Positions 45,299-64,000 of a stretch of DNA of 64,000 nt are shown here, piece after piece. The first letter of the stretch is position 1, and the number at the start of each line of letters is the position of its first letter. The notes beneath the pieces were generated by a model. It had not been told where the DNA came from and made no database searches. It worked only from the letters and a program-made list of their open reading frames with translations. The position numbers and the translations under genes are program-made. Origin of the DNA: Candidatus Limnocylindria bacterium (GTDB lineage: Bacteria; Chloroflexota; Limnocylindria; P2-11E); assembly GCA_046262615.1 (NCBI GenBank), contig JBHEML010000001.1, positions 27,182 through 91,181 on the forward strand, given 5' to 3'.

Positions 45299-45405
45299 GG
45301 GCCGGCCGGCAGCGCGATGGGGACACACGACCCGGCACCGATCGCGATGCAGAGCGCCGCAGGGCAGGTGCGAGCGTAGGATTCGCGTACGGCGTGCACG
45401 GCCTA

Positions 45406-45954
45406 ATGAAGGGGGCGCGACCGGCATTGGCAAGCGAACCACGCATCGGCATCTACCCGGGCTCGTTCGATCCGCCCACGAACGGTCACGTCGACATCGT
45501 CCAGCGCGCTGTACAGCTGTTCGACAAGGTGGTCGTCGGCGTCGGCGTGAACCTGTCGAAGAAGACCGTGTTCAGCTCGGGCGAGCGGATCGAGCTCATG
45601 CGCGAGGCCTGCGCGGACCTCCCGAACGTCGAGGTGCGCGGGTTCGACGGACTCCAGGTCGAGTTCGCTCGCGACTGCGGCGCGCGCTTTGTGATCCGGG
45701 GGATCCGCGCGCTGTCGGACTTCGAGTTCGAGTTCGAGATGGCCAACATGAATCACCGCCTTGCGCCGGAGATCGAGATGGTCTTCCTCATGACGGCGCC
45801 GGAATACCTGTTCCTCTCGGCATCGCGCGTGAAGGAGCTTGTCGCATTCGGCGCCCCGGTCGACACGCTCGTCCCCGCGAACGTCGCGCGGCGCCTGACC
45901 GCGCACGCCGAGAAGGGCAAGCTGCGCACTGGTGCGACCGAGCCGAGCGACTGA
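45406..45954 (+). CDS. coaD: Phosphopantetheine adenylyltransferase
   Basis: 182 aa. YPGSFDPPTNGHVDI (the T/HxGH motif), RGIRALSDFEFEFEMANMN and ISSSRVKE-like SASRVKE. Confidence 0.9.
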   Translation: MKGARPALASEPRIGIYPGSFDPPTNGHVDIVQRAVQLFDKVVVGVGVNLSKKTVFSSGERIELMREACADLPNVEVRGFDGLQVEFARDCGARFVIRGIRALSDFEFEFEMANMNHRLAPEIEMVFLMTAPEYLFLSASRVKELVAFGAPVDTLVPANVARRLTAHAEKGKLRTGATEPSD

Positions 45955-46724: not shown

Positions 46725-46806
46725 GCGTGCGCGTGAGACGCGCGCGCGATCGCCACGATCCACCGGCTCGCCGCCGTCGAAGGGGCAACGTCCGCGGAGT
46801 TCGCCC

Positions 46807-48015: not shown

Positions 48016-48096
48016 TCCGCGAGACCCGCGTGCTCCGTCCGCCGCAACGGGTATGCGCGAGTCCTCGTCGGTCGCCGCGGCTATCGTGCGCCGCCT

Positions 48097-48765
48097 ATGG
48101 CGCTCGAGTGGCTCACCTTCGATTGCTACGGGACGCTCATCGACTGGGAGGGAGGCGTCTTCGCGGCGCTCGCGCCACTCCTGCCGCCGGGCGTGGAGCG
48201 AGACGACCTCGGGCGCCGCTACATCTCCGCGGAGGCCGCGATCGAGGCGGAAGCCTACCTCCCGTACCGCGACGTGCTCGACCGCGCCGGCCGCGCCGTG
48301 CTGCTGGACCTCGGGCGCGCGCTCCGCCCGGACGAGCCGAATCCGCTGCCTGACTCCGTCCCGGCATGGGCGCCGTTCCCCGAGGTGCCGATGGCGCTGA
48401 AGCAGTTGCGCGAACGCGGCCTGCGCCTCGCGGTCCTGTCCAACGTGGACCGTGATCTGATCGCGCCCTCGATCGCGCGGCTCGGCGTGACGCCCGACCT
48501 GGTCGTCACCGCGGAGGATTGCCGTAGCTACAAACCCGCGGAGGGCCACTGGCGGCGCTTCGAGCGCGAGTCCGGCGCGGGACCCGAGACGGCGATCCAC
48601 GTCGCCGCGAGCCAGTACCACGACATCGCCCCCGCGACCGCCCTCGGCTATCGCACCGTGTTCGTCAACCGTCACGCCGAGCTGATCGGCGACGTGGAGC
48701 CCGCCGCCCAGATCCCGGACCTCGCATCGCTGCCGGAGGCCATCGCCCGACTCTCGACGGGCTGA
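48097..48765 (+). CDS. HAD-superfamily hydrolase (haloacid dehalogenase type II-like)
   Basis: 222 aa with motif I FDCYGTLIDWE, plus LSNVD and a K...D late motif. Confidence 0.75.
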   Translation: MALEWLTFDCYGTLIDWEGGVFAALAPLLPPGVERDDLGRRYISAEAAIEAEAYLPYRDVLDRAGRAVLLDLGRALRPDEPNPLPDSVPAWAPFPEVPMALKQLRERGLRLAVLSNVDRDLIAPSIARLGVTPDLVVTAEDCRSYKPAEGHWRRFERESGAGPETAIHVAASQYHDIAPATALGYRTVFVNRHAELIGDVEPAAQIPDLASLPEAIARLSTG

Positions 48766-50398: not shown

Positions 50399-51291
50399 CG
50401 CTGCAGCTCTCGCTGATCGTCACGCCGACCCGCGGGTACACCTACGACGACCTGCGCGCGATCGCGCACGCGGTCGAGGACGCCGGTATGTCCACGCTCT
50501 GGATCGCGGATCACTTCTTTGGCGGCGAGGGCTTTCCCGACCGCAACTGCCTCGAGGCGTGGACTCTGATCGCCGCGCTCGCGCGAGACACCACGCGCCT
50601 GCGGCTGGGCACCATGGTCACCGCGCAGTCGTACCGGAACCCCGCGCTCCTGGCGAAGACCGTCGCATCGGTCGACCACATCTCCGGTGGACGCATCGAA
50701 TTCGGCGTCGGAGCAGGCTGGAAGGAGAATGAGTACCGCGCGTACGGGTACGACTTCCCGCGCGCGGGCGTGCGCGTCGACCAGCTGAGAGAGACGCTCG
50801 AGATCTGCCGGCGCATGTGGGCCGAGGAGCGCGCGACCTACCGCGGCCGGCACTACCGGATCGTGGATGCCGTGTGCGCCCCGAAGCCAGCCCAGCGGCC
50901 GCATCCGCCGATCACGATCGGCGGCGGCAAGCCGCGCGTCATGCGTCTCGCCGCGCGTTACGCCGACGCGTTCAACCTGGACCACCGCGGCGGCACGCCG
51001 ACGCCCGACGACTGGCAGGACGCGCGCCAGGCGCTCGCGGAGGCGTGCAGGGAGGTGGGCCGCGACCCGGGAGCGCTACGCCTGTCGCACTGGAACGAGG
51101 CCGAGATCGGAACGCCGGAAGCATCGGGGGAAGCCGCCGGGAAGCTTTCTGGCGGCCCTGACGCGCTCCTCGCCGCGCTCGGCGGGTACGCGGCGGCCGG
51201 CGTCGCCGAGGTCCAGCTTTCGCTGCCGTACGGGCGCGAGCTCGAGATGGTCCGCATCCTCGCCAGCGACGTCGTACCTCGCCTGTCCTGA
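50395..51291 (+). CDS. LLM-class (luciferase-like) F420-dependent oxidoreductase
   Basis: 298 aa with LWIADHF, LGTMVTAQSYRNPALLAK and GRIEFGVGAGW. ATGA overlap with the HIT gene. Confidence 0.8.
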   Translation: MTLQLSLIVTPTRGYTYDDLRAIAHAVEDAGMSTLWIADHFFGGEGFPDRNCLEAWTLIAALARDTTRLRLGTMVTAQSYRNPALLAKTVASVDHISGGRIEFGVGAGWKENEYRAYGYDFPRAGVRVDQLRETLEICRRMWAEERATYRGRHYRIVDAVCAPKPAQRPHPPITIGGGKPRVMRLAARYADAFNLDHRGGTPTPDDWQDARQALAEACREVGRDPGALRLSHWNEAEIGTPEASGEAAGKLSGGPDALLAALGGYAAAGVAEVQLSLPYGRELEMVRILASDVVPRLS

Positions 51292-51292
51292 C

Positions 51293-53104
51293 TCAGGCGA
51301 GCCTTGCTCGCGCCTCCACGTACGCCGGTACGGTGATCATCGGCTGGCGCTCGATCGCGGCGATGTCCTGCAGCTCGAGGTGGAACTGGCCTCCGTCATC
51401 GTCCGAGATGAGCTTCATCGTCGCGTTCGCGTCCTCCAGGAGACGCTCGCCGCGGGCCTCGCCGACGCGCCGTAGCGCGACCTGCAGGATCTCGAAGCTC
51501 ATCTTCGACAGCGCGTAGAGGCTCTGGTTGCGATGGATCCGCTGCTTCATGTCGACCTGCGCGATGGCGGACAGCCCGGCGCGCTGGAGGATGTCGATGA
51601 GGAGCCCTGTCTCCACTCCATAGCCTGTGAAGAACGGCAGCTGCTCGAGCAACGAACGGCGGCCGCCCTGCTCGCCAGAGAGCGGCTGCACCATCCCCGA
51701 CAGTTCGGGAAAGAAGAGGTTGAGGATGGGCCGCGCCGACAGCTCGGTCACCCTGCCGCCTCCGGTCGCCTGGAGTTCACCTCCGAGGTGCAGGGGCCGG
51801 CGGTAGAAGGCCTTCACGAAGGCGATCTCCGGTCGCATCAGGAGCGGCCCGAGGATGCCGTACACGAACTTCGGATGGATGTTGGAGATGTCGGTGTCGA
51901 TCCAGATGACGATGTCTCCGGTGAGCACGTGGAGGCTCTTCCACAGCGCCTCGCCCTTCCCGCGGTGCGCACCCATCTCGGGGAGCACCTCCTGGTGCAC
52001 GAAGACCGGCACGCCCTCGGCCCTGCCGATCTCGCGCGTGCGGTCGTCCGAGCCTGAATCGATGATCACCAGCTCGTCGATGATCGGGAAGCGCTCGACG
52101 AGCCGCGAGCGTACGGCCCGGACGACTCGGCCGATCGTCGCCTCCTCGTTGAGCGTGGGAAGGCCGACCGAGATGCGGAGCCGCTGCCGCGTCTTCGCGT
52201 CGAACAGGCGCCGCAGGTCGGCGAACTCGCTGCTGGCGAACGTGTTCTCGACGAACCACTTGTCGACGATCTCGCCGATGGCGCGGCTCCGCTCGGCGCG
52301 GTCCAGGGGAAGGTCCGTGCGCGGCAGGAAGATGCTCGACGCGACCGGCGTCTTGGTCCGCACCACGATCGCCGGACGCCCGCTGCGGATGACGCTCTGC
52401 CCGACCGGTCCGAGCGGGTCGGGGGAGCCCTCGCGACCGGTCGCGCCGATGACGATCGCGTCGTGCGCGGAGAGCTCGTCCGCGATGACCGCCACGGGCT
52501 CGCCCGCCCGGCTCGCAACCTGGTCGATGCGCGCGTCGAACGCCGGTCCGCCGAGCGCCCCGTACAACGCGCCGCGCCAGCGGTCGTCGCCCGCCCCGGC
52601 CATGACGTGCAGCAGGGTCACGCGGCCGCTGCGGCGGCGGGCCAAGGCCAGCGCGACGCGCACCGCGAGCTGGGCGTAGCGGCCGCCCCGGACCGGGACC
52701 AGCAGATGGCGCGCGCGCGCGAAGCTGCCCTTGACGATCGCCACGTCGCACGGCGGGTCGCGCAGGATCTCGTCGATCGAGATGCCGAACAGCTCCGATC
52801 CCGAGCGCCGCCAACCGACGATGAGCAGATCCGGGCGCTCCTTCTTCACCGCTTCGACGATCGCCTGCCAGCCGCGGCGCGCCACGGTCACGAGGACCCG
52901 CACGCTTCCCGCCGCGCCCGCCGAGCGGACCATCGCGTCCAGCGCACGCCGCCGGGCGCGGGCTTCGGTCTGCGCCGACGCGAGGGGCGCGTCCTCTCCG
53001 ACGACGATCACCGATGCCAGCAGCACGTCGTCGGCGACCGCGATCGCCACTTCGATAAGCCCGCGGTCGCGCGTGGGGTCGTCGAACGCGATGAGCGCCC
53101 TCAT
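51293..53104 (-). CDS. gpgS: Tandem universal-stress-protein (USP) domains fused to a GT81 glucosyl-3-phosphoglycerate synthase-like glycosyltransferase
   Basis: Track ORF 51293..53116; ATG 53104 forms an ATGA overlap with the GT4 stop. Residues 1 to about 270 are two USP-like alpha/beta units (LLIVGWRR...CDVAIVKG; VIGATGRE...PAIVVRT). The C-terminal region has VGLPTLNEEATIG, IIDSGSDDRT, WIDTDI and QPLSGEQGG, as in GpgS/MpgS. Confidence 0.75.
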   Translation of the reverse strand: MRALIAFDDPTRDRGLIEVAIAVADDVLLASVIVVGEDAPLASAQTEARARRRALDAMVRSAGAAGSVRVLVTVARRGWQAIVEAVKKERPDLLIVGWRRSGSELFGISIDEILRDPPCDVAIVKGSFARARHLLVPVRGGRYAQLAVRVALALARRRSGRVTLLHVMAGAGDDRWRGALYGALGGPAFDARIDQVASRAGEPVAVIADELSAHDAIVIGATGREGSPDPLGPVGQSVIRSGRPAIVVRTKTPVASSIFLPRTDLPLDRAERSRAIGEIVDKWFVENTFASSEFADLRRLFDAKTRQRLRISVGLPTLNEEATIGRVVRAVRSRLVERFPIIDELVIIDSGSDDRTREIGRAEGVPVFVHQEVLPEMGAHRGKGEALWKSLHVLTGDIVIWIDTDISNIHPKFVYGILGPLLMRPEIAFVKAFYRRPLHLGGELQATGGGRVTELSARPILNLFFPELSGMVQPLSGEQGGRRSLLEQLPFFTGYGVETGLLIDILQRAGLSAIAQVDMKQRIHRNQSLYALSKMSFEILQVALRRVGEARGERLLEDANATMKLISDDDGGQFHLELQDIAAIERQPMITVPAYVEARARLA

Positions 53105-54417
53105 CGGGCCTTCCACCGCGCCAGGCGCTCGTCATGGCCGGGTGGATCCGCGCGCCGCGTGCGGCCAGTGGCCCGGCGCTGGCCGGCCGGCGTCCTTGCG
53201 GGGGACCGCGGGTCGGCAAGGATCAGCGGCAGTGCCAACTCCGCGAGCACGCGGGGCCAGGCGTGCGCGCGGGCGCGCATCCTGAGGCGAGCCGCGCGGT
53301 CCCCGTCCATCCGGCGCAGCGTCGCGGCAGCGATGGCGGCGCCATCCGCGTCGGGCGCGACGTACGTGACGTCGTCGCCCCCGATCGCCCGCAGCGCCGG
53401 GATGTCACTGCAGACCACCGGCAGCCGGTGGAGTCCCGCCTCGAGCAGCGGGATCCCGAAACCCTCGCTCGCGCTGGGCAGGACGAGCGCATCGGCCAGC
53501 GCGTAGAGGTCCGCGACGACGCGGTACGTCGCGCGGATGCCGAGGGCGTGCAGGAGGTGGACGCCTTCGGTCGCCAGCGCCCGCAGCTCCGACGCGTAGC
53601 GCTCGTTCGTCGCGTTGTGCGCCCCCGGCGTGCCGGTCACGACCAGCGCGGCGCGGGGCCAGCGTTTCCGAACCAGCGGGAGCGCGGCGATCGCGGCCTC
53701 GACGCGCTTGCGCCGCGTGAGCCTGGCGGGAAGCAGGAGCAGGGGGCTCGCGTCGAAGAGCCCGAGGCGCGCGGCGAGGCGCGCGCCCGCGGGCGAGAGT
53801 CCGAGCGTGGCGGCGATATCGATCCCGTTAGGCACGACCGCGATCGCAGAGCGCCGGACGCCCAGCGCATCGGCCAGCTGCCGCCTGCGCTCGTCGGACA
53901 CCGCCACATAGCGCACCCCGGCGACCGCGCGTGACAGGCGGTCCCACGGGTCGCCCGAATGGCGCTGCGCGGCGTACTGCGGGTCTGCCCAGGCGATGTC
54001 GTGCGTCCATGCGATGAAGCGCCCGGGGTGCTCGCGAGCGAGCCGCTCGAGCGCCGCGGTCAGCGCGGGATTTTTGTGCATCGTGAACGCGTTGTGCACC
54101 ACGACCCGGTCGGTCCTCGCGACGTGCGGACGGAGTTGACTATAGATGTCGTCCGCGAGTCGGCCGTGATCCTCGCCGATCTTTCCCCGCGCGAGGGACG
54201 CGAAGTCGCGCAGCACCCGCGCGTTCTTCGAGTCGATCTCCGCGATGCGCACCAGCTGCACCCCGGAAGGTGACGCACGGCCGCGTCCGGCGATGATCGA
54301 AACGCGCACGCCCGCGTCGCGCAGTGCCGCCGCGTGCACGCCCATCACCTGCTCGACGCCGCCGAGGACCGCGGGGGACGTGTAGTGGAGGAGGGCGACG
54401 CGCGGGGCGCGAGACAG
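53101..54417 (-). CDS. GT4 family glycosyltransferase; inferred CTG start
   Basis: Track ORF 53101..54348 starts inside the fold. The in-frame upstream sequence reads (L)SRAPRVALLHYTSPAVLGGVEQVMGVH, the canonical GT4 N-terminus. The only start-like codon is CTG 54417, 1 nt after the upstream TGA. C-terminal motif SASEGFGIPLLEAG (EX7E). Confidence 0.8.
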   Translation of the reverse strand: MSRAPRVALLHYTSPAVLGGVEQVMGVHAAALRDAGVRVSIIAGRGRASPSGVQLVRIAEIDSKNARVLRDFASLARGKIGEDHGRLADDIYSQLRPHVARTDRVVVHNAFTMHKNPALTAALERLAREHPGRFIAWTHDIAWADPQYAAQRHSGDPWDRLSRAVAGVRYVAVSDERRRQLADALGVRRSAIAVVPNGIDIAATLGLSPAGARLAARLGLFDASPLLLLPARLTRRKRVEAAIAALPLVRKRWPRAALVVTGTPGAHNATNERYASELRALATEGVHLLHALGIRATYRVVADLYALADALVLPSASEGFGIPLLEAGLHRLPVVCSDIPALRAIGGDDVTYVAPDADGAAIAAATLRRMDGDRAARLRMRARAHAWPRVLAELALPLILADPRSPARTPAGQRRATGRTRRADPPGHDERLARWKAR

Positions 54418-54418
54418 C

Positions 54419-56527
54419 TCAGGCCACCGCCGGCTCGCGCACCATCGCGACGCGGCCCCTGCCGCCTCTGATCCTCATCCCGCGGCGTGTGCGCTTCGCC
54501 GTGAACGCGACCCGCGCCTCATGCACGCGCAGGTCCCGCACCGCCACGTGGTCGAGCCACGAGGGCAGGACCGGGTCCGCGCAGAGGCGCTCGTGCTCGA
54601 GGTCCGGCTCCAGACCAAGGAGCACGCGGAGGCAGAGAAAGACCACCCCCGCGGACCAAGCCTGCGGGATGCACGACACGAGGTAATCGGCCGGCCGCGA
54701 GGAAAAACGCAGGTCGCGAGCGAAGCCGCAGAACAACTCTGGCAGCCGCGCGTCGGGGAATCGGCGCCCAGCCTCGAGCAGCGCGTCGACGATCGTGTTC
54801 GCCTCCTGGCGGAAGCCGTACCGCGCGAACCCGTGCGCGACGAGCGAGCTGTCGTGCGGCCACACGGAGCCGTTGTGATAGCTCATCGGGTTGTACGTCG
54901 GATACCTGCTCGACAGGGTGCGGACGCCCCAGCCGGTGAACATGTCGGGGGCCATCAAGCGGTCGGCGAGGGCGCGCGCCTTCTCCTCCGGCACTATGCC
55001 GCACCAGAGCGCGTGTCCGGCGTTGCTCGTCACCGCGGGCACCTGGCGCTTGGAGCCGTCGAGCGCCTGGGCATAGCAGCGCTCCTCGGGCATCCAGAAG
55101 TCGCGGTCGAAGCGATCGCGCAGCTCGCGCGCCTGGTCGCGGAGGCGCCGCGCCCGTTCAGTGTCGCCATTCAGCGCGTACAGATCCGCGAGCCCGCTTT
55201 TCGCGGCGTAGACGTACGCCTGCACCTCGACGAGCGCCGCCGGTAGCGAAGATTGGGTGCCGTCCCGGTCGGACAGCGAATCCCACGAGTCCTTCCATCC
55301 CTGGTTGCGAAGCTCCGATCGGCGCCCGCCGTACTCGACGTAGCCGTCGCGGTCGAGGTCGCCGTACGTGTCGCACCACTCCAGCGCGCGTTCGGCTGCG
55401 GGGAGGAGCTCCCGCCAGAGCGCCCGGTCCGCGGTCCATTTCACGGTCTCCGCGAACACGAGCGCGAAGAGCGGGGTGGCGTCGACCGCGCCGTAGAACG
55501 GCCGGTGCGGTGTCTCGCCGAGGCGCGCGAGCTCGCCGCGGCGCAGCTCGTGAAAGATCTTGCCGGGCTCCTCCTCGGTGAACGCGTCGGAGCGCGTCCC
55601 CTGGTGCTTCGCCAGGAGGCGCAGCGTCCCTCGGGCCAGGTCCGGGTTCCACGCGAGCGTCTGGTACGCGGCGATGAGGCCGTCGCGCCCGAACGGGACC
55701 GCGTACCAGGGGATACCAGCGGTCGGGTACGGCCCGGTCTCCTCGAACTCGATGAGCGCGCGGAGGTCGAGCGCGCTGCGGTTGATCAGCTGCTCGTCGA
55801 GGCTCTCGATGCCGGTGCGGTACTCCGCGCACGACCGCAGGAATCGCCGGTACGAAGAGTTCAGCGCGTCGAGCGCCTCGTCGAACCCGCGCGGCGAGGA
55901 GGCCTCGCCGGTGCCGTCCTCTCTCGGGATGATCGACAGCTCGAGGCGCAGCACGCCCTGAGGCGGAAGCGTGCGCTCCACGAGGACGGTCCGGTCGGTC
56001 ACGCGGTCGGGCGCCGGCGACACGGCGATGTCCGTCGTGCGCCGCACCTCGTCGCGTCCGAGGCGCTCGAATACGAGCCCTGACGGTGTCGCGCGGAGCA
56101 CCGTCTCGGGCTCGACGTGGGCCTTTCCGCGGTAGCCGCGCACGGTGAACATGTCGCGAAAGCTCGCGTCGAACTCCAGCTCTACGCGCAGCTCCACCGG
56201 CTGCGTGTTGCAGTTGAGGATCCCGATCCGCTCGCGCCAGCCGTCGGCGAGGAAACGCGTTCGCCGCACGGACAGCGATTGCGCCGCGAGGGTCTCGCCC
56301 CCCGGCAGTGGCGCCGCCGCGTTCACGAGCTGGAACGTGCCGACGTAGTTCTGCTCGGTGTTGTTCGACAGCAGCAGTGGCGCGGCGCCGTTGATCCGCA
56401 GCGCGAATCCCGACAGGAACTGGGTGTCGTGGTAGTAGAGCCCGAGCGCGCTGTGGCCGCCGAGCGGAAGGCCTCCGTCGTCGTCCGATACGAGGACGAG
56501 CGCATCCTCCTTCAGCGCGACGGTCAC
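54419..56527 (-). CDS. Amylo-alpha-1,6-glucosidase / GDE-type glycoside hydrolase (GDE_N_bis plus GDE_C-like)
   Basis: GTG 56527 overlaps the upstream stop (GTGA) and gives 702 aa. Motifs GLYYHDTQFLS, GIPWYAVPFGRDG, FYGAVDATPLF, NQGWKDSWDS and YHNGSVWPHD indicate an (alpha/alpha)6 barrel hydrolase. Confidence 0.8.
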   Translation of the reverse strand: MTVALKEDALVLVSDDDGGLPLGGHSALGLYYHDTQFLSGFALRINGAAPLLLSNNTEQNYVGTFQLVNAAAPLPGGETLAAQSLSVRRTRFLADGWRERIGILNCNTQPVELRVELEFDASFRDMFTVRGYRGKAHVEPETVLRATPSGLVFERLGRDEVRRTTDIAVSPAPDRVTDRTVLVERTLPPQGVLRLELSIIPREDGTGEASSPRGFDEALDALNSSYRRFLRSCAEYRTGIESLDEQLINRSALDLRALIEFEETGPYPTAGIPWYAVPFGRDGLIAAYQTLAWNPDLARGTLRLLAKHQGTRSDAFTEEEPGKIFHELRRGELARLGETPHRPFYGAVDATPLFALVFAETVKWTADRALWRELLPAAERALEWCDTYGDLDRDGYVEYGGRRSELRNQGWKDSWDSLSDRDGTQSSLPAALVEVQAYVYAAKSGLADLYALNGDTERARRLRDQARELRDRFDRDFWMPEERCYAQALDGSKRQVPAVTSNAGHALWCGIVPEEKARALADRLMAPDMFTGWGVRTLSSRYPTYNPMSYHNGSVWPHDSSLVAHGFARYGFRQEANTIVDALLEAGRRFPDARLPELFCGFARDLRFSSRPADYLVSCIPQAWSAGVVFLCLRVLLGLEPDLEHERLCADPVLPSWLDHVAVRDLRVHEARVAFTAKRTRRGMRIRGGRGRVAMVREPAVA

Positions 56528-57738
56528 CGGTCCCACCCCGCGCGCAGATAGGACTTCTCGTCCTCGAACGCGCGTGCCTGCGCTTCCACCGCGCGCTCCG
56601 CCCCGGCGGTGTCGGCGCCGGCGACCTCGGCGATGAAGGCTTCGACGCGCGCGAAATAGAGCGGCACCAGCGAGGCGACGTAGGCGCCGGTGCGTTCGGG
56701 CGACCGGCGGCACGCGAGCAGCGCGTCGTAGACCACGCGCGCCCACCCCGCGCGCCAGCGTTCGGGAGCCACCGCGCCGCCCGCGGCCTCGTGGACGAGC
56801 GCGAGCTGGTCCGCTGCGAGCATCTCCTTCCACGCGTCGCCCTGGTCCGTCGCACCAGCGAGGAAATTGCGCCGCAGCGTGGCCGCGCTGGCGTTCACCG
56901 GCTCGGGCTCGACCGCCGCGGCCTCGCCCAGGACCTCGGCCGGCCGCGAGCCTTCCACGCCGCCCCACGCCGCGGCGTTGCGCACAGCGAGGCGGATCGC
57001 GGTCCCGACGACCTGCGCGAACATGGGCGCGAGGTCTGCGCCCGGGTCCTTCGGATCGTGGATCTTCGCCCCGAGGAACGCCTGCGCGACCCGTTCGCCG
57101 CGCACGAGCGCGGTCGTCGTCATGTAGACGTCTATCCCGAATCGCGCGACGTCCGTCTCCCACACCGCGGCCGCATCGCCCGCGGCCCCGCCGCCGAGGA
57201 AGGCGCGCGCGAGATCGCCCGAGAACCCGAACTCGCCGCCGATCGGCTGGCGCACGCGCAGGCCGTAGAGCGCCCGCGTCAGCGGGTATGCGATGGAGTT
57301 GGTGATCGTCCCATCGTGCTTGTGTCGCGCGTACAGCGGAGCCACGTACGTCGCGCGGCCGTCGACCACCGGGCCGAGCAGGCGCGCGATCCATTCCGGC
57401 GTGATGCTGCGCAGGTCGCTGTCGACGACCGCGCACGCGCGCGCGCCCAGTCGCTCTGCGGCTTCAAAGATCGCGCGGAACGCGGAGCCCTTGCCCGGGA
57501 TCCCGCGGTAAGCGCCGCTGACGACGGGTACGTCCCCCGCGCCGGCGCGCACCCGATCCGGGGTGCCGTCGCTCGAGCCGCCGTCCGCGTTGACGATGGC
57601 GCTCCGCGCATCGGGGAACGCCTCGCGCAGGCCGCGCGCTACCGAGCGCGCGACGTGCTCGACGGTGGACGCGTTGTTGTAACTCGGGATGCCGACGAGG
57701 AGATCGGCGCCGCCGATCCGCGCGACGCCGTCCCGCAT
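56524..57738 (-). CDS. GT-A fold glycosyltransferase (GT2-like, distantly GT78/GT81-like) with a helical C-terminal domain
   Basis: ATG at codon 89 of track ORF 56524..58002 gives 404 aa. Motifs LVGIPSYNNASTVEHV, NADGGSSDGT, VVDSDL (DxD) and RQPIGGEFGF. GTG 57822 is an alternative start. Confidence 0.7.
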   Translation of the reverse strand: MRDGVARIGGADLLVGIPSYNNASTVEHVARSVARGLREAFPDARSAIVNADGGSSDGTPDRVRAGAGDVPVVSGAYRGIPGKGSAFRAIFEAAERLGARACAVVDSDLRSITPEWIARLLGPVVDGRATYVAPLYARHKHDGTITNSIAYPLTRALYGLRVRQPIGGEFGFSGDLARAFLGGGAAGDAAAVWETDVARFGIDVYMTTTALVRGERVAQAFLGAKIHDPKDPGADLAPMFAQVVGTAIRLAVRNAAAWGGVEGSRPAEVLGEAAAVEPEPVNASAATLRRNFLAGATDQGDAWKEMLAADQLALVHEAAGGAVAPERWRAGWARVVYDALLACRRSPERTGAYVASLVPLYFARVEAFIAEVAGADTAGAERAVEAQARAFEDEKSYLRAGWDR

Positions 57739-57811
57739 GCGCTCGTCCAGTCCGGTGGCCCCTTCCCCGGCGCGCGCATCGGCGGGCGATGCCGGATGCG
57801 CCACTTCGGCG

Positions 57812-58471
57812 ATGATAGCCACGGTGCTCGACGCGCTCGACGCGATCGTGATCCCCTTCCTTGAGTCGCTGTACTCCGCGCTCGGGTACGCGGGCGTCGC
57901 GCTGGCCATGACGATCGAGAGCGCGGCGATCCCGGTCCCGAGCGAGGTCATCCTTCCCTTCGCCGGTTGGGTCGTCTCGCGCGGACTCGTCGAGCCGCTC
58001 ACCGGCGCGCCGTGGACTTACGCCGGTGCCGTCGCCGCCGGTCTGGTCGGCAACACGGCGGGATCGCTCATCGCGTACGCCGTGGGCGCCTATGGCGGGC
58101 GCCCCTTCCTCGAGAGATTCGGCAGGTACGTGCTCATCAGCGGCCACGACCTCGACCTCGCGGACCGCTGGTTCGGGCGCTACGGCGATGCGACCGTGTT
58201 CTTCTCTCGGATGCTGCCCGTCGTGCGCACCTTCATCAGCCTTCCGGCAGGCATCGCGCACATGCCGCTCTGGCGCTTCCTGGTCTTCTCCGTCCTCGGG
58301 GCCCTGCCGTGGATCATGCTGCTCGTCTGGGGCGGCGTCGTGCTGGGCGACCACTGGCTCGACCTCAAGCGCTCCCTCAAGGGCCTCGACTACATCGTCG
58401 TGGCGGTCGTCGTCCTCCTCGTCGGGCTCTTCGTCTACCGCCACGTCCGGCGGTCCCCGGCGCGCCGCTAG
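57812..58471 (+). CDS. DedA family membrane protein
   Basis: ATG at codon 42 of track ORF 57689..58471 gives 219 aa. Motifs AMTIESAAIPVPSEVILPFAG, GRPFLERFGRY, FFSRMLPVVRTFISLPAG. Confidence 0.85.
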   Translation: MIATVLDALDAIVIPFLESLYSALGYAGVALAMTIESAAIPVPSEVILPFAGWVVSRGLVEPLTGAPWTYAGAVAAGLVGNTAGSLIAYAVGAYGGRPFLERFGRYVLISGHDLDLADRWFGRYGDATVFFSRMLPVVRTFISLPAGIAHMPLWRFLVFSVLGALPWIMLLVWGGVVLGDHWLDLKRSLKGLDYIVVAVVVLLVGLFVYRHVRRSPARR

Positions 58472-58522
58472 TGGGTCGCGTCGGCGAGCACCGGCCGCGG
58501 AACACCGCCGTGCGCGGCTAAA

Positions 58523-61492
58523 GTGGACGCCCTGCGCGACGCGCTCGGCGCGTTCGATACGCAGCTGTACCTCGCGATCACGACCTCGCGCAACGCCGTC
58601 ACGGCGGCGATCGCGACGCTCCTCGTATTGGCGAACGCCTTCGGGCTCATGTGGTGGGTCTTCGGGCTCGGCGCGATGCGCGGCCGGGGCCTCGGACGGC
58701 GCGGGGCGTGGATCCTCCTGACCGTCTTCCTCGGCACCGTCGACGGCTGGTTCACCGCCGAGATACTGAAGTTCGTCTTCCGCCGCGTGCGTCCCTTCCT
58801 CGCGATCCCCGGCGTGGCGGAACCCCTCATACCGGGTCCGCAGTCGTACTCGTTCCCCTCGGGAGATGCCGCGCTCGCCTTCGGCGCCGCCGTCGCGCTC
58901 GGGAGCGTTCTCCCGCGGCTGCGTATCCCCGCCGTGCTCCTTGCGACAGCGGTCGCGCTGTCGCGCGTCGGCGTGGGGGTCCACTACCCCTTCGATGTCG
59001 TTGGGGGCGCGGCTCTGGGCGTCGCGTCCGGGGTCCTCGCCCCGCGCGGGGTACAGATCATCCGCCGACAGCTGCGCTGGCGTGCCTTCGTCGTGGCGCA
59101 CACCCACTGGGACCGCGAGTGGTACGAGCGCTTCGAGGGGTACCGCGCGCGCCTGGTCCCGATGGTCGCGGGCCTCCTCGACATCCTCGAGCGCGACCCC
59201 TCGTTCCGCTCGTTCACCTTCGACGGGCAGACGATCGCGATCGAGGACCACCTCGCCGTCCGCCCGGGCGATCGACCGCGCGTCGAAGCCCAGGTCGGAT
59301 CGGATCGGCTGTTCATCGGCCCCTGGTACGTCCTCGCGGACCTGTTGCTGGTCTCGGGGGAGTCGCTCCTGCGGAACTTCGAGGAGGGCCTGCGAGTGGC
59401 GGCGACATTCGGGCGGGCGATGCGCGTCGCCTACGTCGCAGACCCGTTCGGCCACCCCGCGCAGATGCCCCAGGTCCTTCGGGGCTTCGGGTACACGAGC
59501 TACGTGTTCGCGCGCGGGGTGGGAGACGAGGGGGAGGAGCTTGGGAGCGAGTTCTGGTGGGAATCGCCCTCCGGCGACCGCGTCCTCGCATCGCACCAGG
59601 TCGCGCACTACGCGAACGCCCGGCCGCTGGTGGGCCCGGTCGACGAGACCCCAACGGTGCTGCGCGCCCGCGTCGCGCGCGTGCTGCCTCGCATCCTCGA
59701 CCGGACCGCCCCGTACGCGAGTGGCGACGCGCTCCTGTTCATGGTCGGGGATGACCACGTCGAGACGTACCCCCGGCTGCCGGACGCGGTCGAAGCGATC
59801 CGCGCGGTCGCGCCGCGCGTCGACGCGCGGATCGCGTCGCTCGAGGAGTTCGTCGCCGCGCTGCCCGCGCCGCGAGGGACCTTCGCCGGAGAGATGGTCT
59901 CCGGAAAGTACCGCCCGATCCTTCGCGGCGTGAACTCGACGCGCGTCTGGATCAAGCAGGAGAACGCACGATGCGAGCGGCTCCTGATCGAACGGTGCGA
60001 GCCGCTCGATGCCTTCGCCGGCGGCTCGGCGCGCGAGGCGATCCGCGGCCTCTGGCGCACCCTGCTCGAGAACCAGCCCCACGACTCGATCTGCGGGTGC
60101 TCGATCGACGCTGTCCACGACCTCGACATGGCGCCTCGCTTCAGGCGCGTCATCGAGGAGGGACGGCAGCTTGTGGATGCGCTCGCCGTGCGGCTCGATG
60201 GCGGTGCCGACGCTGTGGCGTGGAGTGCGCTGCCGTGGGAGCGCGACGCCGTCCTCGACCAGGGCGGCGTCCCGACCGCGGTCCACTGCGCGGCTCTGGG
60301 TACCGCGCCGGCGCGTCGGGCACCGGTGCGCCCCCCCGGCTCGCCGGAAGAGGGGGTGATCGAGAACGAGGCGCTGCGCGTCGAGGTCGGGACGGACGGC
60401 AGCTTCCACGTGGTCGACCGCGCCACGGGTGTGCGCTCCGGCCCTCACAACATCCTGCTCGACGAGGGCGATCGCGGCGACGAGTACACGTACTCGTACG
60501 CCGGTCCGACGGTGGGGTCGCGCGGCATCGCCGGCCGGCGCGCGACGGTCGTGTCTGGGGACCGCGCCGCGGTCACGGTCGAGCTCACGCTGCCGCTGCC
60601 CTTCTCGCTGCGGGAGGATCGCCTGGCGCGGACCGCCGAGACCGTCGCCTGCCCCATCCGCGCGGTCGTGTCGCTGGACGCGGGCGCCGCTCGTGTCGAT
60701 GTGGCGCTCCACGTGGACAACCGCGCCCGCGACCACCGGCTGCGCGTGCTATGCGAGACCGGTGGACGGGGCGTCACCCACCTCGCCGGGGCGGCGTTCG
60801 CGTGGCTCGAGCGCCCGAACCGCGTGCCGCGCAAGCCCGGCTGGGTCGAGCCTCCGACCGAGACGCGCGCGCTGCACGACATCGTGGCTGTCGAACGCTC
60901 GGGGAACTGGTTCGCCGTGGGGGTCGATGGCCTCCGCGAATACGCCATCCTCCACGACGGCAACACCATCGCGGTCACGCTCCTGCGAGCGGTCGGGTGG
61001 CTTTCCCGCAGCGACCTGCGGGAGAGAAAGGGCGGAGCCGGCCCCGAGCTCGAGACGCCGTCCGCCCAGTGTCCGGGCGAGCGCGAGTACCGATACTCAG
61101 TGGTGCCCCGCAGCCGGTCGCTCGCCCAGGCGGAGCGCCGCATCCGGGAATGGCTGTCGCCGCCGTGGGTCGGGCAGGGCAGTGGCGTGGCGCGCTCGTT
61201 CCTCGACATCGGCGACTCTCCGCTGAGGCTCTCGTCCGTCAGGTCGGCCGCGGACGGCCGCGTAGCGGTTCGCATGGTCAACCCCGGTGCCGAGGCCGCG
61301 TCCGCCGTCCTGCGTTTCGCGAGCGCGGCGACCGAGGCAGCCGTCGTGGATCTGCGTGAAGGCGACACCGGCCTCGGCCGCACCGGGCTCGATGTCATCC
61401 GCACGGCGGCACCGGCGGAGGTCGTTGGGGGCGCGCTCGCGGTGCGCCTGGAGCCGTACGAGATCGGCACCTGGCTCGTGCGCCTCGAGTGA
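58523..61492 (+). CDS. Fusion protein: N-terminal membrane PAP2 (acid/lipid phosphatase) domain plus GH38 alpha-mannosidase
   Basis: 989 aa, GTG start. Residues 1 to about 205 have 5-6 TM helices with KFVFRRVRP (KX6RP), PSGD (normally PSGH) and SRVGVGVHYPFD (SRX5HX3D). From residue about 215 it reads VVAHTHWDREW...GPWYVLAD...DPFGHPAQMPQ, the GH38 N-terminal catalytic domain, followed by the central and C-terminal beta domains. Confidence 0.8.
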   Translation: MDALRDALGAFDTQLYLAITTSRNAVTAAIATLLVLANAFGLMWWVFGLGAMRGRGLGRRGAWILLTVFLGTVDGWFTAEILKFVFRRVRPFLAIPGVAEPLIPGPQSYSFPSGDAALAFGAAVALGSVLPRLRIPAVLLATAVALSRVGVGVHYPFDVVGGAALGVASGVLAPRGVQIIRRQLRWRAFVVAHTHWDREWYERFEGYRARLVPMVAGLLDILERDPSFRSFTFDGQTIAIEDHLAVRPGDRPRVEAQVGSDRLFIGPWYVLADLLLVSGESLLRNFEEGLRVAATFGRAMRVAYVADPFGHPAQMPQVLRGFGYTSYVFARGVGDEGEELGSEFWWESPSGDRVLASHQVAHYANARPLVGPVDETPTVLRARVARVLPRILDRTAPYASGDALLFMVGDDHVETYPRLPDAVEAIRAVAPRVDARIASLEEFVAALPAPRGTFAGEMVSGKYRPILRGVNSTRVWIKQENARCERLLIERCEPLDAFAGGSAREAIRGLWRTLLENQPHDSICGCSIDAVHDLDMAPRFRRVIEEGRQLVDALAVRLDGGADAVAWSALPWERDAVLDQGGVPTAVHCAALGTAPARRAPVRPPGSPEEGVIENEALRVEVGTDGSFHVVDRATGVRSGPHNILLDEGDRGDEYTYSYAGPTVGSRGIAGRRATVVSGDRAAVTVELTLPLPFSLREDRLARTAETVACPIRAVVSLDAGAARVDVALHVDNRARDHRLRVLCETGGRGVTHLAGAAFAWLERPNRVPRKPGWVEPPTETRALHDIVAVERSGNWFAVGVDGLREYAILHDGNTIAVTLLRAVGWLSRSDLRERKGGAGPELETPSAQCPGEREYRYSVVPRSRSLAQAERRIREWLSPPWVGQGSGVARSFLDIGDSPLRLSSVRSAADGRVAVRMVNPGAEAASAVLRFASAATEAAVVDLREGDTGLGRTGLDVIRTAAPAEVVGGALAVRLEPYEIGTWLVRLE

Positions 61493-61500
61493 GGAGCGCG

Positions 61501-61588
61501 CCGCACCAACGGACGACACGCCGCGCACCAACGGACGACAGTGGGCGCACCAACGGACGACAGCCCGCGCACATTGGGGGGACAGACG
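61501..61588. repeat. 22-bp-period tandem direct repeats (3 near-perfect copies plus 1 degenerate)
   Basis: 61501 ccGCACCAACGGACGACAcgcc / 61523 gcGCACCAACGGACGACAgtgg / 61545 gcGCACCAACGGACGACAgccc / 61567 gcGCACattGGggGACAgacg. The 16-nt core is identical in copies 1-3. They lie in the intergenic region after the PAP2-GH38 stop. Confidence 0.85.
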
Positions 61589-61605
61589 CGACACGCACGA
61601 ATGGC

Positions 61606-61611
61606 TACGTT
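61606..61611 (+). promoter_or_regulatory. Candidate -10 box (TACGTT) for leaderless mRNA of the secreted protein gene
   Basis: TACGTT is followed by 8 nt and then ATG 61620. The tandem repeats end where a -35 element would be. Confidence 0.35.
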
Positions 61612-61619
61612 CCGGCGCG

Positions 61620-62153
61620 ATGTCACGTCCGGTCCGGGTCCTACTCGTCGCCCTCGCTGCCGCGCTCCTGCTCTCGGCGTCGGATCCCGCCGCCGCGGAC
61701 GACGGTTGGCGGTTCCGCCGTACGACGCCGCGGGCCGCGCTGCTCCTCGAGGCCGATGGTTACGAGATCGGGGTCCCGGGCGGCCGGGCGTGGGGCATCG
61801 AGAGCGGCCTTCGCCCGCTGACGGGCACATCCCGGGTCGTCTTCGAGATCGCCGTCGATGATCCGGCGGTCCGCGAGGCGTTCCTGCGCGTCGCGTACTA
61901 CGACCGCGAGACCGGCCGGCCGCGGCAGATGGCGATCGCTGACTCCGCGGTCGTGCGCGTCGGCGAGGACCGGGTCGTCTCGGTCACCCTGGAGCCGCCC
62001 ACCGGCGCCATCGCCTACCGGGTGCGGGTGCTCGCTCGGCTGTCACCGGGCGCCCGCGCATCCGCCTCGGACGCCATTCGCGTAAGCGGTGCCGACGCTC
62101 TCTGGACGCTCGGACCGCGACCGTACACGCGGCTCCGCCCGGATGGCCCGTGA
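61620..62153 (+). CDS. Secreted hypothetical protein
   Basis: ATG at codon 112 of track ORF 61287..62153 gives 177 aa. Signal peptide MSRPVRVLLVALAAALLLSASDPAAA, then a beta-rich body with no motif I recognise. Confidence 0.6.
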   Translation: MSRPVRVLLVALAAALLLSASDPAAADDGWRFRRTTPRAALLLEADGYEIGVPGGRAWGIESGLRPLTGTSRVVFEIAVDDPAVREAFLRVAYYDRETGRPRQMAIADSAVVRVGEDRVVSVTLEPPTGAIAYRVRVLARLSPGARASASDAIRVSGADALWTLGPRPYTRLRPDGP

Positions 62154-62186
62154 CATACTGGCCAGACTTTCAGTTGAGCCAGGGAG

Positions 62187-63278
62187 GTGACGCCGATGGC
62201 GACGGTGACCTTCGACCACGTATCCAAGCGATTCGGTGAGTTCACGGCGGTGAACGACCTGTCGCTCCAGGTCAGGGACGAGGAATTCCTCGTGCTCGTC
62301 GGTCCGTCAGGCTGTGGCAAGACCACGGCCCTGCGCATGATCGCCGGGCTCGAGGAGCAGACCAGCGGCGATATCCGCATCGGCGACCGGGTCGTCAACG
62401 ACGTCGCCCCGAAGGACCGCGACATCGCCATGGTGTTCCAGAACTACGCCCTGTATCCGCACATGTCGGTGTACGACAACATCGCCTTCGGCCTGAAGCT
62501 GCGCGGCATGCCCAAGAACGAGATCGAGCGCCGCGTGAACGAGGTCGGAGAGATGCTCGGTCTCGCCAAGCTCCTGAAGCGCAAGCCGAAGGAGCTCTCC
62601 GGTGGACAGCGCCAGCGCGTCGCCGTCGGTCGCGCGATCGCCCGCGAGCCCTCCGTCTTCCTGATGGACGAGCCACTCTCCAACCTCGACGCGGCCCTGC
62701 GTATCCAGACGCGCGCCATGCTCCAGAAGCTTCATCAGCGCATCCGGCGCACGACCGTGTACGTCACGCACGACCAGGTCGAGGCCATGACCATGGGCGA
62801 CCGGATCGCCGTCATGAAGGACGGCATCCTCCAGCAGATCGACACCCCAGAGCACCTCCACGAGCAGCCCGGCAACCTGTTCGTCGCGGGGTTCATCGGG
62901 TCGCCGGCCATGAACTTCTTCCCGGCGAAGATCGTCCAGAGCGACGGCACCGCGGTCGCCGACGCTGGCTTCTTCCGCTCGCCTCTGGTGAAGGACGCGG
63001 CGAAGCAGGCCGTCGGCAAGGACGTGATCGTCGGCGTGAGGCCTGAGGACATCGAGGCGAACGTCGGGCTCAACGGCAAGGTGCCGGTCGACGCCCAGGT
63101 GGATGTCGTGGAGTTCCTCGGCAACGAGTTCCAGCTGCACCTGAACGCCGGCGGGCAGACCTTCGTCGCTCGCGTGCCGGCCGACGTGAAGACCCAGCCC
63201 GGAGAGGCGATCCGCGTCGGATTCGACACGCGCAAGCTGCACGTGTTCGACAAGACGTCGGAGGCCGCCCTGCAGTGA
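62187..63278 (+). CDS. Carbohydrate ABC transporter ATP-binding protein (MalK/UgpC/MsiK-like)
   Basis: 363 aa with Walker A GPSGCGKTT, signature LSGGQRQRV, Walker B FLMDEPLSNLD and a MalK-type C-terminal TOBE-like regulatory domain. Confidence 0.92.
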   Translation: MTPMATVTFDHVSKRFGEFTAVNDLSLQVRDEEFLVLVGPSGCGKTTALRMIAGLEEQTSGDIRIGDRVVNDVAPKDRDIAMVFQNYALYPHMSVYDNIAFGLKLRGMPKNEIERRVNEVGEMLGLAKLLKRKPKELSGGQRQRVAVGRAIAREPSVFLMDEPLSNLDAALRIQTRAMLQKLHQRIRRTTVYVTHDQVEAMTMGDRIAVMKDGILQQIDTPEHLHEQPGNLFVAGFIGSPAMNFFPAKIVQSDGTAVADAGFFRSPLVKDAAKQAVGKDVIVGVRPEDIEANVGLNGKVPVDAQVDVVEFLGNEFQLHLNAGGQTFVARVPADVKTQPGEAIRVGFDTRKLHVFDKTSEAALQ

Positions 63279-64000
63279 GCCTGCGCGGCACGCTCGAGCA
63301 CTTCCCGCTCGAGACCATCGTGCAGCTCCTCGCCTCGACGAGCAAGACCGGCCAGCTCGAGGTGCGCCCCGACAGCGCGGATGGACTCGGCGGAGCCCTC
63401 GGCTTCGCCGACGGGCGCCTCGTCTCCGCTTCGAGCGGCTCGGACTCCGGCGAGGACGCCCTCGGCGTCGTGTTCTCAGCGGAGCGGGGCGAGTTCGAGT
63501 TCATTCCCTGGCGCGAGGCACCGAGCGAGAACCTGAAGGGCGACCTGAACTCGCTTCTGGACCGCGCCCTCCAGGAGCGCGACAGGATGACGGCCGTCCG
63601 TGAGGTCGTGCCGCGCGACACCATGCGATTCCGCCTGTCGGATCGCGCGGCGCAGAAGGACAACATCACGCTGAACTCGACGCAGTGGCGCGCGCTGCTC
63701 GCCGTGAACGGAGAGCGCGACGTGACGGGTATCGCGGAGACGCTCGGCTCGGGCCGCATGCCCACGCTGCAGCTCCTCGCGGAGCTGCTCCGGGCGGGGA
63801 TGATCGACGGCATTGACCCCGGACCCCAGGCGCCCGCCCCGGCCGCGTCCGCTGGTGCCGCCGAGTCGACCGGTGGCGAGCGACGCGTTTCCCGCCCATC
63901 CGAGCCAGCCTCGGGTGGGACATCCGCCGCGTCGCCCGCCGCCGACGGGTGGTCGGCGCCCTTGGATCCCGGCAGCGACGCACCCGCCGATGCGCGATGG
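63275..64000 (+). CDS. DUF4388 domain-containing protein (runs off the window end)
   Basis: Not in the ORF track because no stop occurs before the window end. GTG 63275 overlaps the ATPase TGA (GTGA). My translation reads SLRGTLEHFPLETIVQLLASTSKTGQLEV...GEFEFIPW, a typical DUF4388 N-terminus, followed by a Pro/Ala-rich tail. Confidence 0.65.
   Translation, partial: MSLRGTLEHFPLETIVQLLASTSKTGQLEVRPDSADGLGGALGFADGRLVSASSGSDSGEDALGVVFSAERGEFEFIPWREAPSENLKGDLNSLLDRALQERDRMTAVREVVPRDTMRFRLSDRAAQKDNITLNSTQWRALLAVNGERDVTGIAETLGSGRMPTLQLLAELLRAGMIDGIDPGPQAPAPAASAGAAESTGGERRVSRPSEPASGGTSAASPAADGWSAPLDPGSDAPADARW

Follow-up and report, generated by a model that had tools for sequence, protein, structure and literature searches.

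Why should a membrane phosphatase of the PAP2 family and an alpha-mannosidase of glycoside hydrolase family 38 (GH38) be joined in one polypeptide, and do the two halves act on one pathway or on two? This question is raised by a locus in a 64,000-nucleotide (nt) stretch of DNA from a Candidatus Limnocylindria bacterium (assembly GCA_046262615.1, contig JBHEML010000001.1, positions 27,182 to 91,181 of the forward strand), which is called the window here; positions are those of the window. A first-pass annotation of the window had described a DedA gene and, after it, a PAP2::GH38 fusion in a single frame, both divergent from an operon that encodes glucosyl-3-phosphoglycerate synthase (GpgS); our results bore out this anatomy, and a motif search of the 989-amino-acid (aa) open reading frame (ORF) likewise recovered the three PAP2 motifs and the start of the GH38 motifs where they had been placed. 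We found that the fusion is genuine and conserved, that the residues of both catalytic centres are retained, and that the two active sites are predicted to lie on opposite faces of the membrane. The features of the pair, in a region with a G+C content of approximately 70-75% around the fusion, are as follows, invariant residues being those of an alignment of 39 sequences (A1).

57812..58471, plus strand: DedA family protein, UptA-like, 219 aa, ATG start (VTT_dom, 78.1 bits against a cut-off of 33.9)
58523..61492, plus strand: PAP2::GH38 fusion protein, 989 aa, GTG start (a single ORF, with both domains in Pfam)
58523..59083, plus strand: PAP2 membrane domain, aa 1-187, an N-terminal amphipathic helix and membrane helices, its site predicted to face outward
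58769..58795, plus strand: PAP2 motif C1, KFVFRRVRP, aa 83-91 (K83, R90 and P91 invariant)
58856..58867, plus strand: PAP2 motif C2, PSGD, aa 112-115, Asp replacing the canonical His (invariant in A1)
58961..58996, plus strand: PAP2 motif C3, SRVGVGVHYPFD, aa 147-158 (R148, H154 and D158 invariant)
59084..61492, plus strand: GH38 alpha-mannosidase domain, aa 188-989, predicted to be cytoplasmic (Pfam GH38 N-terminal, middle and C-terminal families)
59099..59122, plus strand: GH38 metal-binding motif HTHWDREW, aa 193-200 (H195 and D197 corresponding to H13 and D15 of the Streptococcus pyogenes enzyme SpGH38)
59441..59455, plus strand: GH38 motif DPFGH, aa 307-311 (D307 corresponding to SpGH38 D125, nucleophile and metal ligand)
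59747..59758, plus strand: GH38 motif GDDH, aa 409-412 (D411 corresponding to SpGH38 D232, general acid/base)
60077..60103, plus strand: GH38 motif PHDSICGCS, aa 519-527 (H520 and D521 corresponding to SpGH38 H351, a metal ligand, and D352)

Within the fusion, Pfam places PAP2 (PF01569) at aa 75-177 (E=1.5e-17; 64 bits against a cut-off of 27.2), Glyco_hydro_38N at aa 188-449 (E=2e-31; 109.8 bits), Alpha-mann_mid at aa 468-555 (51.5 bits) and Glyco_hydro_38C at aa 613-826, the last with 23.9 bits and thus slightly below its cut-off of 25. PAP2 and GH38 occur together within approximately 990 aa in all 120 of the best-scoring clusters formed at 90% identity (63-96% identity), and both domains were matched in 33 loci of a data set holding one genome per species, mostly Candidatus Limnocylindria. 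At the junction, W186 and the stretch H193-Y201 are invariant in A1. The clusters, the genomes and the invariant junction residues together rule out a frameshift or an assembly artefact between the two parts, which the first-pass annotation had named as the point to check. It had also asked how rare the architecture is: the fusion proved to be common within one lineage, yet we found no published description of it, as a literature query for PAP2 with GH38 returned one irrelevant match and a query for PAP2, mannosidase and undecaprenyl returned none.

The named clusters are mostly labelled Candidatus Limnocylindria or Chloroflexota, and the database names of the fusion, where given, are “phosphatase PAP2 family protein” or “membrane-associated phospholipid phosphatase”. 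Few members of the fusion family were recovered when the PAP2 domain alone was searched against 1.84 billion representatives at 50% identity, one of them a distant fusion of 50% identity overall (P0244). The fusion is conserved across the class Limnocylindria and a lineage labelled Dormibacterota. Two further contigs, labelled Bathyarchaeia (L011) and Saccharimonadales (L021), carry it at 62-64% identity, the former followed by MalK and the latter within the complete gene order typical of Limnocylindria; both are probably mis-binned. The component families are already known, and both the DedA-PAP2 linkage and the PSGD variant have been published; the novelty lies in the conserved PAP2::GH38 architecture, the opposite-face placement of its active sites and its association with an operon of glycosyl-glycerate type.

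Is the phosphatase half likely to work? Residues K83, R90, P91, S113, G114, R148, H154 and D158 are invariant in A1, and the domain has the Pfam score of the PAP2 superfamily as well as its C1 (KX6RP) and C3 (SRX5HX3D) patterns; the first residue of C3 varies among homologs (S, E, A or G), with the Arg, His and Asp of C3 invariant. The departure is in C2, where PSGH is replaced by PSGD in 118 of 120 family members; among the further best matches of the PAP2 domain, 113 of 149 have PSGH, and PSGD is confined to the fusion family. The first-pass annotation had singled out this change, which is indeed present and family-wide but is not new, because the active LpxE of Aquifex, which dephosphorylates both the 1-phosphate of lipid A and undecaprenyl diphosphate (C55-PP), carries PSGD as well. 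In Escherichia coli PgpB, the H163A substitution leaves 27% of the activity on C55-PP and 0.09% on phosphatidylglycerol phosphate (PGP) (PMC7413402). PSGD as a novel or inactivating change is ruled out by these two precedents, in view of which the PAP2 domain is probably active, and by analogy the variant suggests a lipid substrate with a pyrophosphate group. In the proposed chemistry, His154 would serve as the nucleophile, backed by Asp158, and the Asp of PSGD would either stand in for the proton-shuttling His or be superfluous with a pyrophosphate leaving group.

The relatives of this domain are lipid phosphatases. Its best sequence match in the PDB is Aquifex LpxE (6EBU, 35 bits) and its best fold match is Bacillus subtilis YodM/PgpB (5JKI, 26% identity). 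With these enzymes it shares a length of approximately 180 aa, seven helices including an N-terminal amphipathic one, the KX6RP and RX5HX3D motifs and, with LpxE, PSGD; it differs in that the last helix runs on into an 800-aa GH38 domain that is predicted to be cytoplasmic, and the sequence similarity is low. Judged by NCBIfam scores, the domain is a relative and not an equivalog of the undecaprenyl-diphosphatase models (SepP, NF047884, 58.8 against 250 bits; PRK11837, 29.5 against 229 bits). Among its nearest relatives of the PSGH type, four (P0171, P0195, P0225 and P0226) bear a C-terminal DAGK_cat/YegS_C lipid-kinase domain and four others (P0155, P0175, P0203 and P0247) contain two PAP2 stretches. 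The former resemble the fusion in having an N-terminal PAP2 membrane domain followed by a soluble C-terminal catalytic domain, although their partner is a lipid kinase and their motif is PSGH.

The mannosidase half is catalytically intact by its sequence and is predicted to be active, because the metal ligands, the nucleophile and the acid/base residue of GH38 enzymes are all conserved: H195, D197, D307, D411 and H520 are invariant in A1. HTHWDREW is found in all 121 full-length members, DPFGH in 120 of them (and invariantly in A1) and PHDSICGCS in 119, counting one PHDSVCGCS variant, with H520 and D521 invariant; D411 and H412 of GDDH are invariant in A1 and were aligned to 3LVT. The correspondence with SpGH38, whose residue roles (H13, D15, D125, D232, H351 and D352) are taken from PMC2815779, was made motif by motif and not by a residue-level alignment to its structure 2WYH. 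Over its full length, the domain shares 32% identity with E. coli MngB, and the closest folds are those of 2WYI and 5KBP (TM-score of 0.77 when normalised to the target). MngB, a 2-O-(6-phospho-alpha-mannosyl)-D-glycerate hydrolase, is also the nearest NCBIfam family (NF007331), which the domain matches with 368 bits, below the cut-off of 1138. With MngB and the enzymes of S. pyogenes (2WYH) and Enterococcus faecalis (5KBP), the domain shares the full-length GH38 fold, the catalytic residues and the N-terminal start; those three are free, soluble proteins of sugar-uptake operons, whereas the GH38 domain of the fusion is joined to the membrane and encoded beside biosynthetic genes of glycosyl-glycerate type.

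The unfused relatives give little guidance on the substrate. The neighbourhoods of 44 unfused GH38 relatives (L036-L079) are heterogeneous and gave no consistent substrate signal; a few neighbour clusters recur, with DUF3048, GT20, PHP, FemAB, SpoIID and LysM proteins in individual loci. A cell-wall-related FemAB, SpoIID or LysM protein stands beside an unfused GH38 of 35-45% identity in L042 (6946-7983), L056 (6995-8617) and L036 (4937-6073). These cell-wall neighbours differ from case to case and may be a coincidence.

How the two halves are placed relative to the membrane is central to what they could do together. In the AlphaFold2 model of the fusion (predicted local distance difference test, pLDDT, 86; predicted template-modelling score, pTM, 0.84), helices of the PAP2 domain span residues 2-21, 25-37, 39-54, 59-86, 114-129, 131-151 and 156-182. 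The last of these leads directly to the first GH38 strand (186-193), the GH38 domain beginning 4 residues past the helix, and C3 lies at the N-terminal start of the same helix, as it does in LpxE. Because C3 starts the last helix and GH38 follows directly after it, the PAP2 site and the GH38 domain are placed by the model on opposite faces of the membrane. No hydrophobic segment occurs after aa 190 of the fusion, and the N-termini of MngB and SpGH38 coincide with the HxHWDREW strand of the GH38 domain; SpGH38 is without a classical signal peptide (PMC2815779).

The absolute orientation can be approached from the distribution of charge. Among 122 family members, the loops 52-60 and 132-135 and the linker 176-189 have on average 4.07, 1.54 and 4.11 lysine and arginine residues, respectively, and almost no aspartate or glutamate, whereas the loops that bear the motifs contain acidic residues and approximately four lysines or arginines, the catalytic motifs themselves accounting for two of these in the C1 loop and one in the C3 loop. 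From this bias and from homology we infer an outward PAP2 site and a cytoplasmic GH38 domain. Active sites on opposite faces are an argument against sequential action of the two enzymes on one soluble substrate.

The gene upstream provides a second indication of what the PAP2 domain may do. The NCBIfam UptA model covers the DedA protein almost entirely (model positions 4-195 of 198) with 171.9 bits (E=1.6e-50), below the cut-off of 250, so that in this respect it differs from the UptA and PopT translocases. In YghB, E39, D51, R130 and R136, at the tips of the re-entrant helices, have been proposed to bind protons and polyprenyl phosphate (PMC10127716); in our alignment with YghB, R130, R136 and E39 are invariant, with Glu at the position of D51, which preserves the acidic/arginine pairs. 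In nearly all related loci whose upstream sequence is long enough, including distant loci and the clade with decayed GH38 described below, DedA lies 5' of PAP2; a tblastn search of L007 gave no DedA match. The two genes overlap by 4 nt in L080 and by 1 nt in L081, and they abut in L084.

Published DedA-PAP2 and DUF368-PAP2 fusions have been read as a C55-PP phosphatase joined to a flippase for undecaprenyl phosphate (C55-P). Our locus resembles these systems in linking a COG0586-type DedA protein with conserved key residues to a PAP2 domain; it differs in that the genes are separate but adjacent or overlapping and that the PAP2 protein bears a GH38 domain, no additional glycosidase being mentioned in the published surveys of DedA-PAP2 systems. 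On these sequence grounds, we consider it reasonably likely that DedA and PAP2 have a role in carrier-lipid metabolism, namely in the recycling of polyprenyl diphosphate.

Can the two halves be separated? A clade in which the GH38 part has decayed indicates that they can. P0124 (868 aa) keeps PAP2 with PSGD and has lost all four GH38 catalytic motifs, and three related loci (L081, L082 and L084) encode a stand-alone PAP2 protein of 177 aa, again with PSGD, followed by two ORFs that are remnants of GH38 and share 32% and 47% identity with the corresponding stretches of the window protein. These three loci have no GpgS operon at the syntenic site, where pantothenate genes are found instead, and they are otherwise syntenic with the window, flanked upstream by PanK, DFP and HAD genes and downstream by genes for a small secreted protein and MalK. 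Since decay of GH38 has left DedA and PAP2 in place, the stable core of the locus is the DedA-PAP2(PSGD) pair; GH38 is losable, and its loss coincides with the absence of the operon from the syntenic site. The size of the clade is poorly measured by a word-indexed search with the stand-alone PAP2 protein (P0125), which returned only 19 matches. A comparison of L081 (5369-6534) with L084 (5541-6707) found contigs that are 96% identical and GH38 remnants that differ at 1 of 753 nt, whereas the DedA and PAP2 proteins are 84-85% identical, with a synonymous divergence (dS) of 0.36-0.50, which suggests recombination or mosaic assembly confined to the DedA-PAP2 segment.

The candidate partner of the mannosidase is the divergent operon, whose four minus-strand genes start at approximately 57738, some 73 bp from DedA, and end against a convergent luciferase-like gene.

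56524..57738, minus strand: soluble GT-A glycosyltransferase resembling GpgS, GgS and MGS, called GT2b here (Pfam GT2)
54419..56530, minus strand: glycoside hydrolase with GDE_N_bis and MGH1-like (GH63-like) domains, called GDE here (Pfam, 156 and 79 bits)
53101..54348, minus strand: GT4 glycosyltransferase (Pfam Glycos_transf_1 and Glyco_transf_4)
51293..53116, minus strand: universal stress protein (Usp) domains fused to glucosyl-3-phosphoglycerate synthase (NCBIfam GpgS, 370 against 262 bits)

GT2b reaches 50 bits with the NCBIfam model of GpgS and has GpgS structures as its best PDB matches; some of its orthologs are named “glucosylglycerate synthase” by JGI, and one matches PF21969 (MGS_GT) at a sub-threshold 23 bits. 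The GDE protein matches PDB 7VMA with 333 bits. The GT4 protein, whose best PDB match is the GDP-mannose-dependent PimB', reaches 49 bits on the mannosylglucosylglycerate synthase model against a cut-off of 640, which indicates general GT4 membership only; MggA, the mannosyltransferase that acts on glucosyl-3-phosphoglycerate, and MggS are likewise GT4 enzymes. The GpgS protein itself carries two Usp stretches at its N-terminus, a fusion conserved across Limnocylindria loci. The matches of these genes point toward glycosyl-glycerate metabolism; this is a lead, GpgS being the only one above a curated cut-off.

As in the glucosylglycerate and mannosylglucosylglycerate pathways of Petrotoga mobilis and Rhodopirellula baltica (GpgS, MggA and MggB; GgS and MggS), there are a GpgS, an adjacent GT4, a GgS/MGS-like GT-A enzyme and an MGH1-like hydrolase; unlike there, the operon contains no MggB- or GpgP-like phosphatase, and indeed no phosphatase gene was found among its four genes. 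Known GpgP and MggB enzymes are members of families other than PAP2, and their genes often lie elsewhere (PMC3240985). The HAD hydrolase at 48097..48765 was considered as the operon's phosphatase but is not supported as specific to it, the same gene standing at the same place in L081, which lacks the operon. No GH38 enzyme was mentioned in the one paper on the mannosylglucosylglycerate pathway that was searched, and we found no report of the solute from these uncultured bacteria.

Approximately 30 Limnocylindria loci keep the order Usp-GpgS, GT4, GDE, GT2b, divergent DedA, fusion and MalK. In L080, whose fusion is 50% identical, orthologs of GT2b (52%) and GDE (57%) lie 4.3 kb upstream, and genes for a sugar ATP-binding cassette (ABC) transporter and an alpha-amylase lie downstream of the fusion; L033 is similar. 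In this Dormibacterota-like lineage, a pair of dynamin-like GTPase genes is found directly 5' of DedA on the opposite strand (L080, 3702-6985; L033, 1913-5181), and in L080 this pair stands between the DedA-fusion genes and the GT2b-GDE genes.

The reading that we prefer assigns the two halves to different tasks: the outward PAP2 domain and DedA would recycle the polyprenyl-diphosphate carrier, and the cytoplasmic GH38 domain would cleave a soluble alpha-mannoside of the divergent operon. On the outside, the LpxE/YodM-like PAP2 domain would take the terminal phosphate off a pyrophosphate lipid, most likely the undecaprenyl or polyprenyl diphosphate released after glycan transfer, and the UptA-like DedA, co-transcribed with the fusion, would flip the resulting polyprenyl monophosphate back to the inner leaflet. 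On the inside, the MngB-like GH38 domain, held against the cytoplasmic face directly after the last PAP2 helix, would hydrolyse a mannosyl-(glucosyl-)glycerate-type solute made by the operon of GgS-like, GH63-like, GT4 and Usp-GpgS proteins, and would thereby be its catabolic partner. The fusion itself may be a read-through from one gene into its neighbour that became fixed and keeps GH38 at the membrane, or it may reflect some coupling of the two activities. The architecture with its conservation, the conserved motifs of the two domains, the opposite-face geometry, the synteny and the natural splitting of the halves in one clade are shown by the data, whereas the absolute orientation, the two substrates and any reason for the fusion are inferred. 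We put the probability of the whole statement at roughly 0.5; our confidence in the architecture and in the opposite-face geometry is much higher, and the assignment of GH38 to soluble alpha-mannosides of the mannosyl-(glucosyl-)glycerate type, which draws on the operon's family matches, is tentative, at slightly less than even odds.

Several observations weigh against this reading. The topology is based on hydropathy, charge bias and homology rather than on a dedicated predictor or experiment. The fusion as such, its short, conserved linker with the invariant W186 and a pTM of 0.84 point to an integrated unit, so that a shared pathway is possible, and by analogy the lipid-kinase partners of the near PAP2 relatives would favour a lipid substrate for the cytoplasmic domain. 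Gene adjacency within Limnocylindria may in part be inherited order, MalK being equally conserved, even in the clade with decayed GH38. Evidence for the joint loss of GH38 and of the operon at the syntenic site comes from that single clade (L081, L082 and L084 with the related P0124). On the side of the substrate, neither GT2b nor GT4 reaches the family cut-offs in its matches to glycosyl-glycerate enzymes, and the low score of GH38 on the MngB model means that its substrate may differ from that of MngB.

Among the alternatives, the one that survives best keeps PAP2 outside, the DedA flip and GH38 inside and joins them in a single polyprenyl carrier cycle, in which GH38 would trim alpha-mannose off polyprenyl-diphosphate-linked or membrane-anchored glycans of the inner leaflet and free carrier trapped in dead-end intermediates. 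The strict conservation of the fusion down to 50% identity, the short conserved linker, the confident inter-domain model and the tight coupling to an UptA-like DedA are all in its favour, as are the DAGK_cat/YegS_C domains of near PSGH relatives, which indicate that this position can host an enzyme of inner-leaflet lipids, and the FemAB, SpoIID and LysM genes that adjoin some unfused GH38 relatives. We nevertheless regard it as unlikely: DedA and PAP2 persist without a functional GH38, so that GH38 is dispensable for recycling; no gene for a GT-C enzyme, a phosphoglycosyl transferase, a flippase or a polymerase was found near the fusion in any lineage, the neighbours being those of soluble sugar metabolism; and the closest characterised GH38 enzymes work on soluble substrates.

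Its strongest form, in which DedA and the fusion constitute one carrier-reclaiming machine with three activities and GH38 de-mannosylates lipid-linked intermediates, rescuing carrier from stalled or surplus ones, seems to us rather improbable. Eukaryotes have a separate lumenal dolichyl-diphosphatase of the PAP2 family and a cytosolic GH38 enzyme that trims free oligosaccharides, and such a machine, if it existed, would be a bacterial fusion of these two enzyme families. The first-pass annotation had proposed a related idea, that the module strips mannose from polyprenyl-phosphate-linked intermediates to recycle the carrier. Its carrier-recycling part is upheld for DedA and PAP2 by the UptA-like score, the key residues and the published pairing; the stripping of polyprenyl-phosphate-mannose is not, because this lipid is beta-linked through its phosphate and thus no GH38 substrate, so that removal of its mannose by a retaining alpha-mannosidase is chemically unlikely.

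A different substrate for the membrane half also has to be weighed: the PAP2 domain might act on another lipid (phosphatidylglycerol phosphate, phosphatidic acid or a lipid-A-like phosphate) or serve mainly as an anchor for GH38, with DedA unrelated to polyprenyl phosphate. PAP2 enzymes are promiscuous, LpxE and PgpB each accepting several lipids; the domain scores far below all undecaprenyl-diphosphatase equivalog cut-offs (58.8 against 250, for example); and some DedA proteins, such as PetA (PMC10193950), flip phospholipids. Against these points, a pure anchor would not be expected to hold eight catalytic residues invariant, loss of the C2 His in PgpB nearly abolishes PGP hydrolysis and spares C55-PP (PMC7413402), and the DedA protein, for which the UptA models are the nearest, retains the residues with a proposed role in phosphate and proton binding. 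We judge this explanation improbable.

The weakest candidate is the other proposal of the first-pass annotation, in which PAP2 supplies the missing phosphatase for glucosyl- or mannosylglucosyl-3-phosphoglycerate and acts in turn with the mannosidase on one soluble molecule: the operon does have GpgS and GT4 and no phosphatase gene, and soluble PAP2 acid phosphatases for small phosphomonoesters exist (with weak PDB matches to 7F17 and 7F18), but the case against it rests on the opposite-face active sites, on the charge bias that sets the PAP2 site outside and away from the cytoplasmic GpgS and GT4, on the retention of DedA and PAP2(PSGD) in loci with a decayed GH38 and without the operon at the syntenic site, on the lipid phosphatases among the nearest relatives (LpxE, YodM and the undecaprenyl-diphosphatase models), on the placement of GpgP and MggB in other families and often elsewhere, and on the GgS/MGS-like enzyme, which by analogy with the published non-phosphorylating route would need no phosphatase, and we hold it to be very improbable.

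Some features of the surrounding DNA complete the description of the locus. The PanK, DFP and HAD genes (45255-48765, plus strand) are syntenic with L081 and L084, and thus the major facilitator superfamily (MFS) gene, the luciferase-like gene and the GpgS operon fill a variable slot between conserved flanks. Downstream, three tandem 22-nt units (GCGCACCAACGGACGAC plus a 5-nt spacer) occupy 61501-61566, beginning 9 nt past the stop of the fusion and 5' of the gene that follows. In the window the 14-nt core is present exactly three times, and none of the 86 related loci contains it; a spacing of 22 nt would fit a protein-binding site in repeated copies. A protein of approximately 177 aa is encoded between the fusion and MalK (61620-62153, plus strand), with a signal-like N-terminus (MSRPVRVLLVALAAALLLSAS) and without a Pfam match, which is 52-55% identical in L081 and L083 and is kept where GH38 has decayed. 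A scan for sigma-70 promoters in the divergent region and the region 3' of the fusion found no promoter-like sites, a terminator scan of the same regions gave a single terminator-like match within the DedA coding sequence that is not considered meaningful, and an Rfam scan of positions 51000-64000 gave no match.

What would these findings mean for the organisms concerned? As a protein, the fusion is predicted to be a clean natural case of one polypeptide with two intact catalytic centres on opposite faces of a membrane, and even if its halves are independent it would be a second natural example of a PAP2 enzyme in which the C2 histidine is dispensable. The DedA protein is a candidate polyprenyl-phosphate flippase of a transporter family that received its functional assignment as late as 2022-2023. 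The class Limnocylindria, known earlier as Ellin6529, comprises abundant, uncultured Chloroflexota of soil and freshwater. If the two halves are independent, the locus would provide this class with a candidate carrier-lipid recycling pair, a phosphatase and a flippase, together with a candidate hydrolase for a solute of the mannosyl-glycerate type; if they cooperate, it would represent a new kind of carrier-lipid salvage system.

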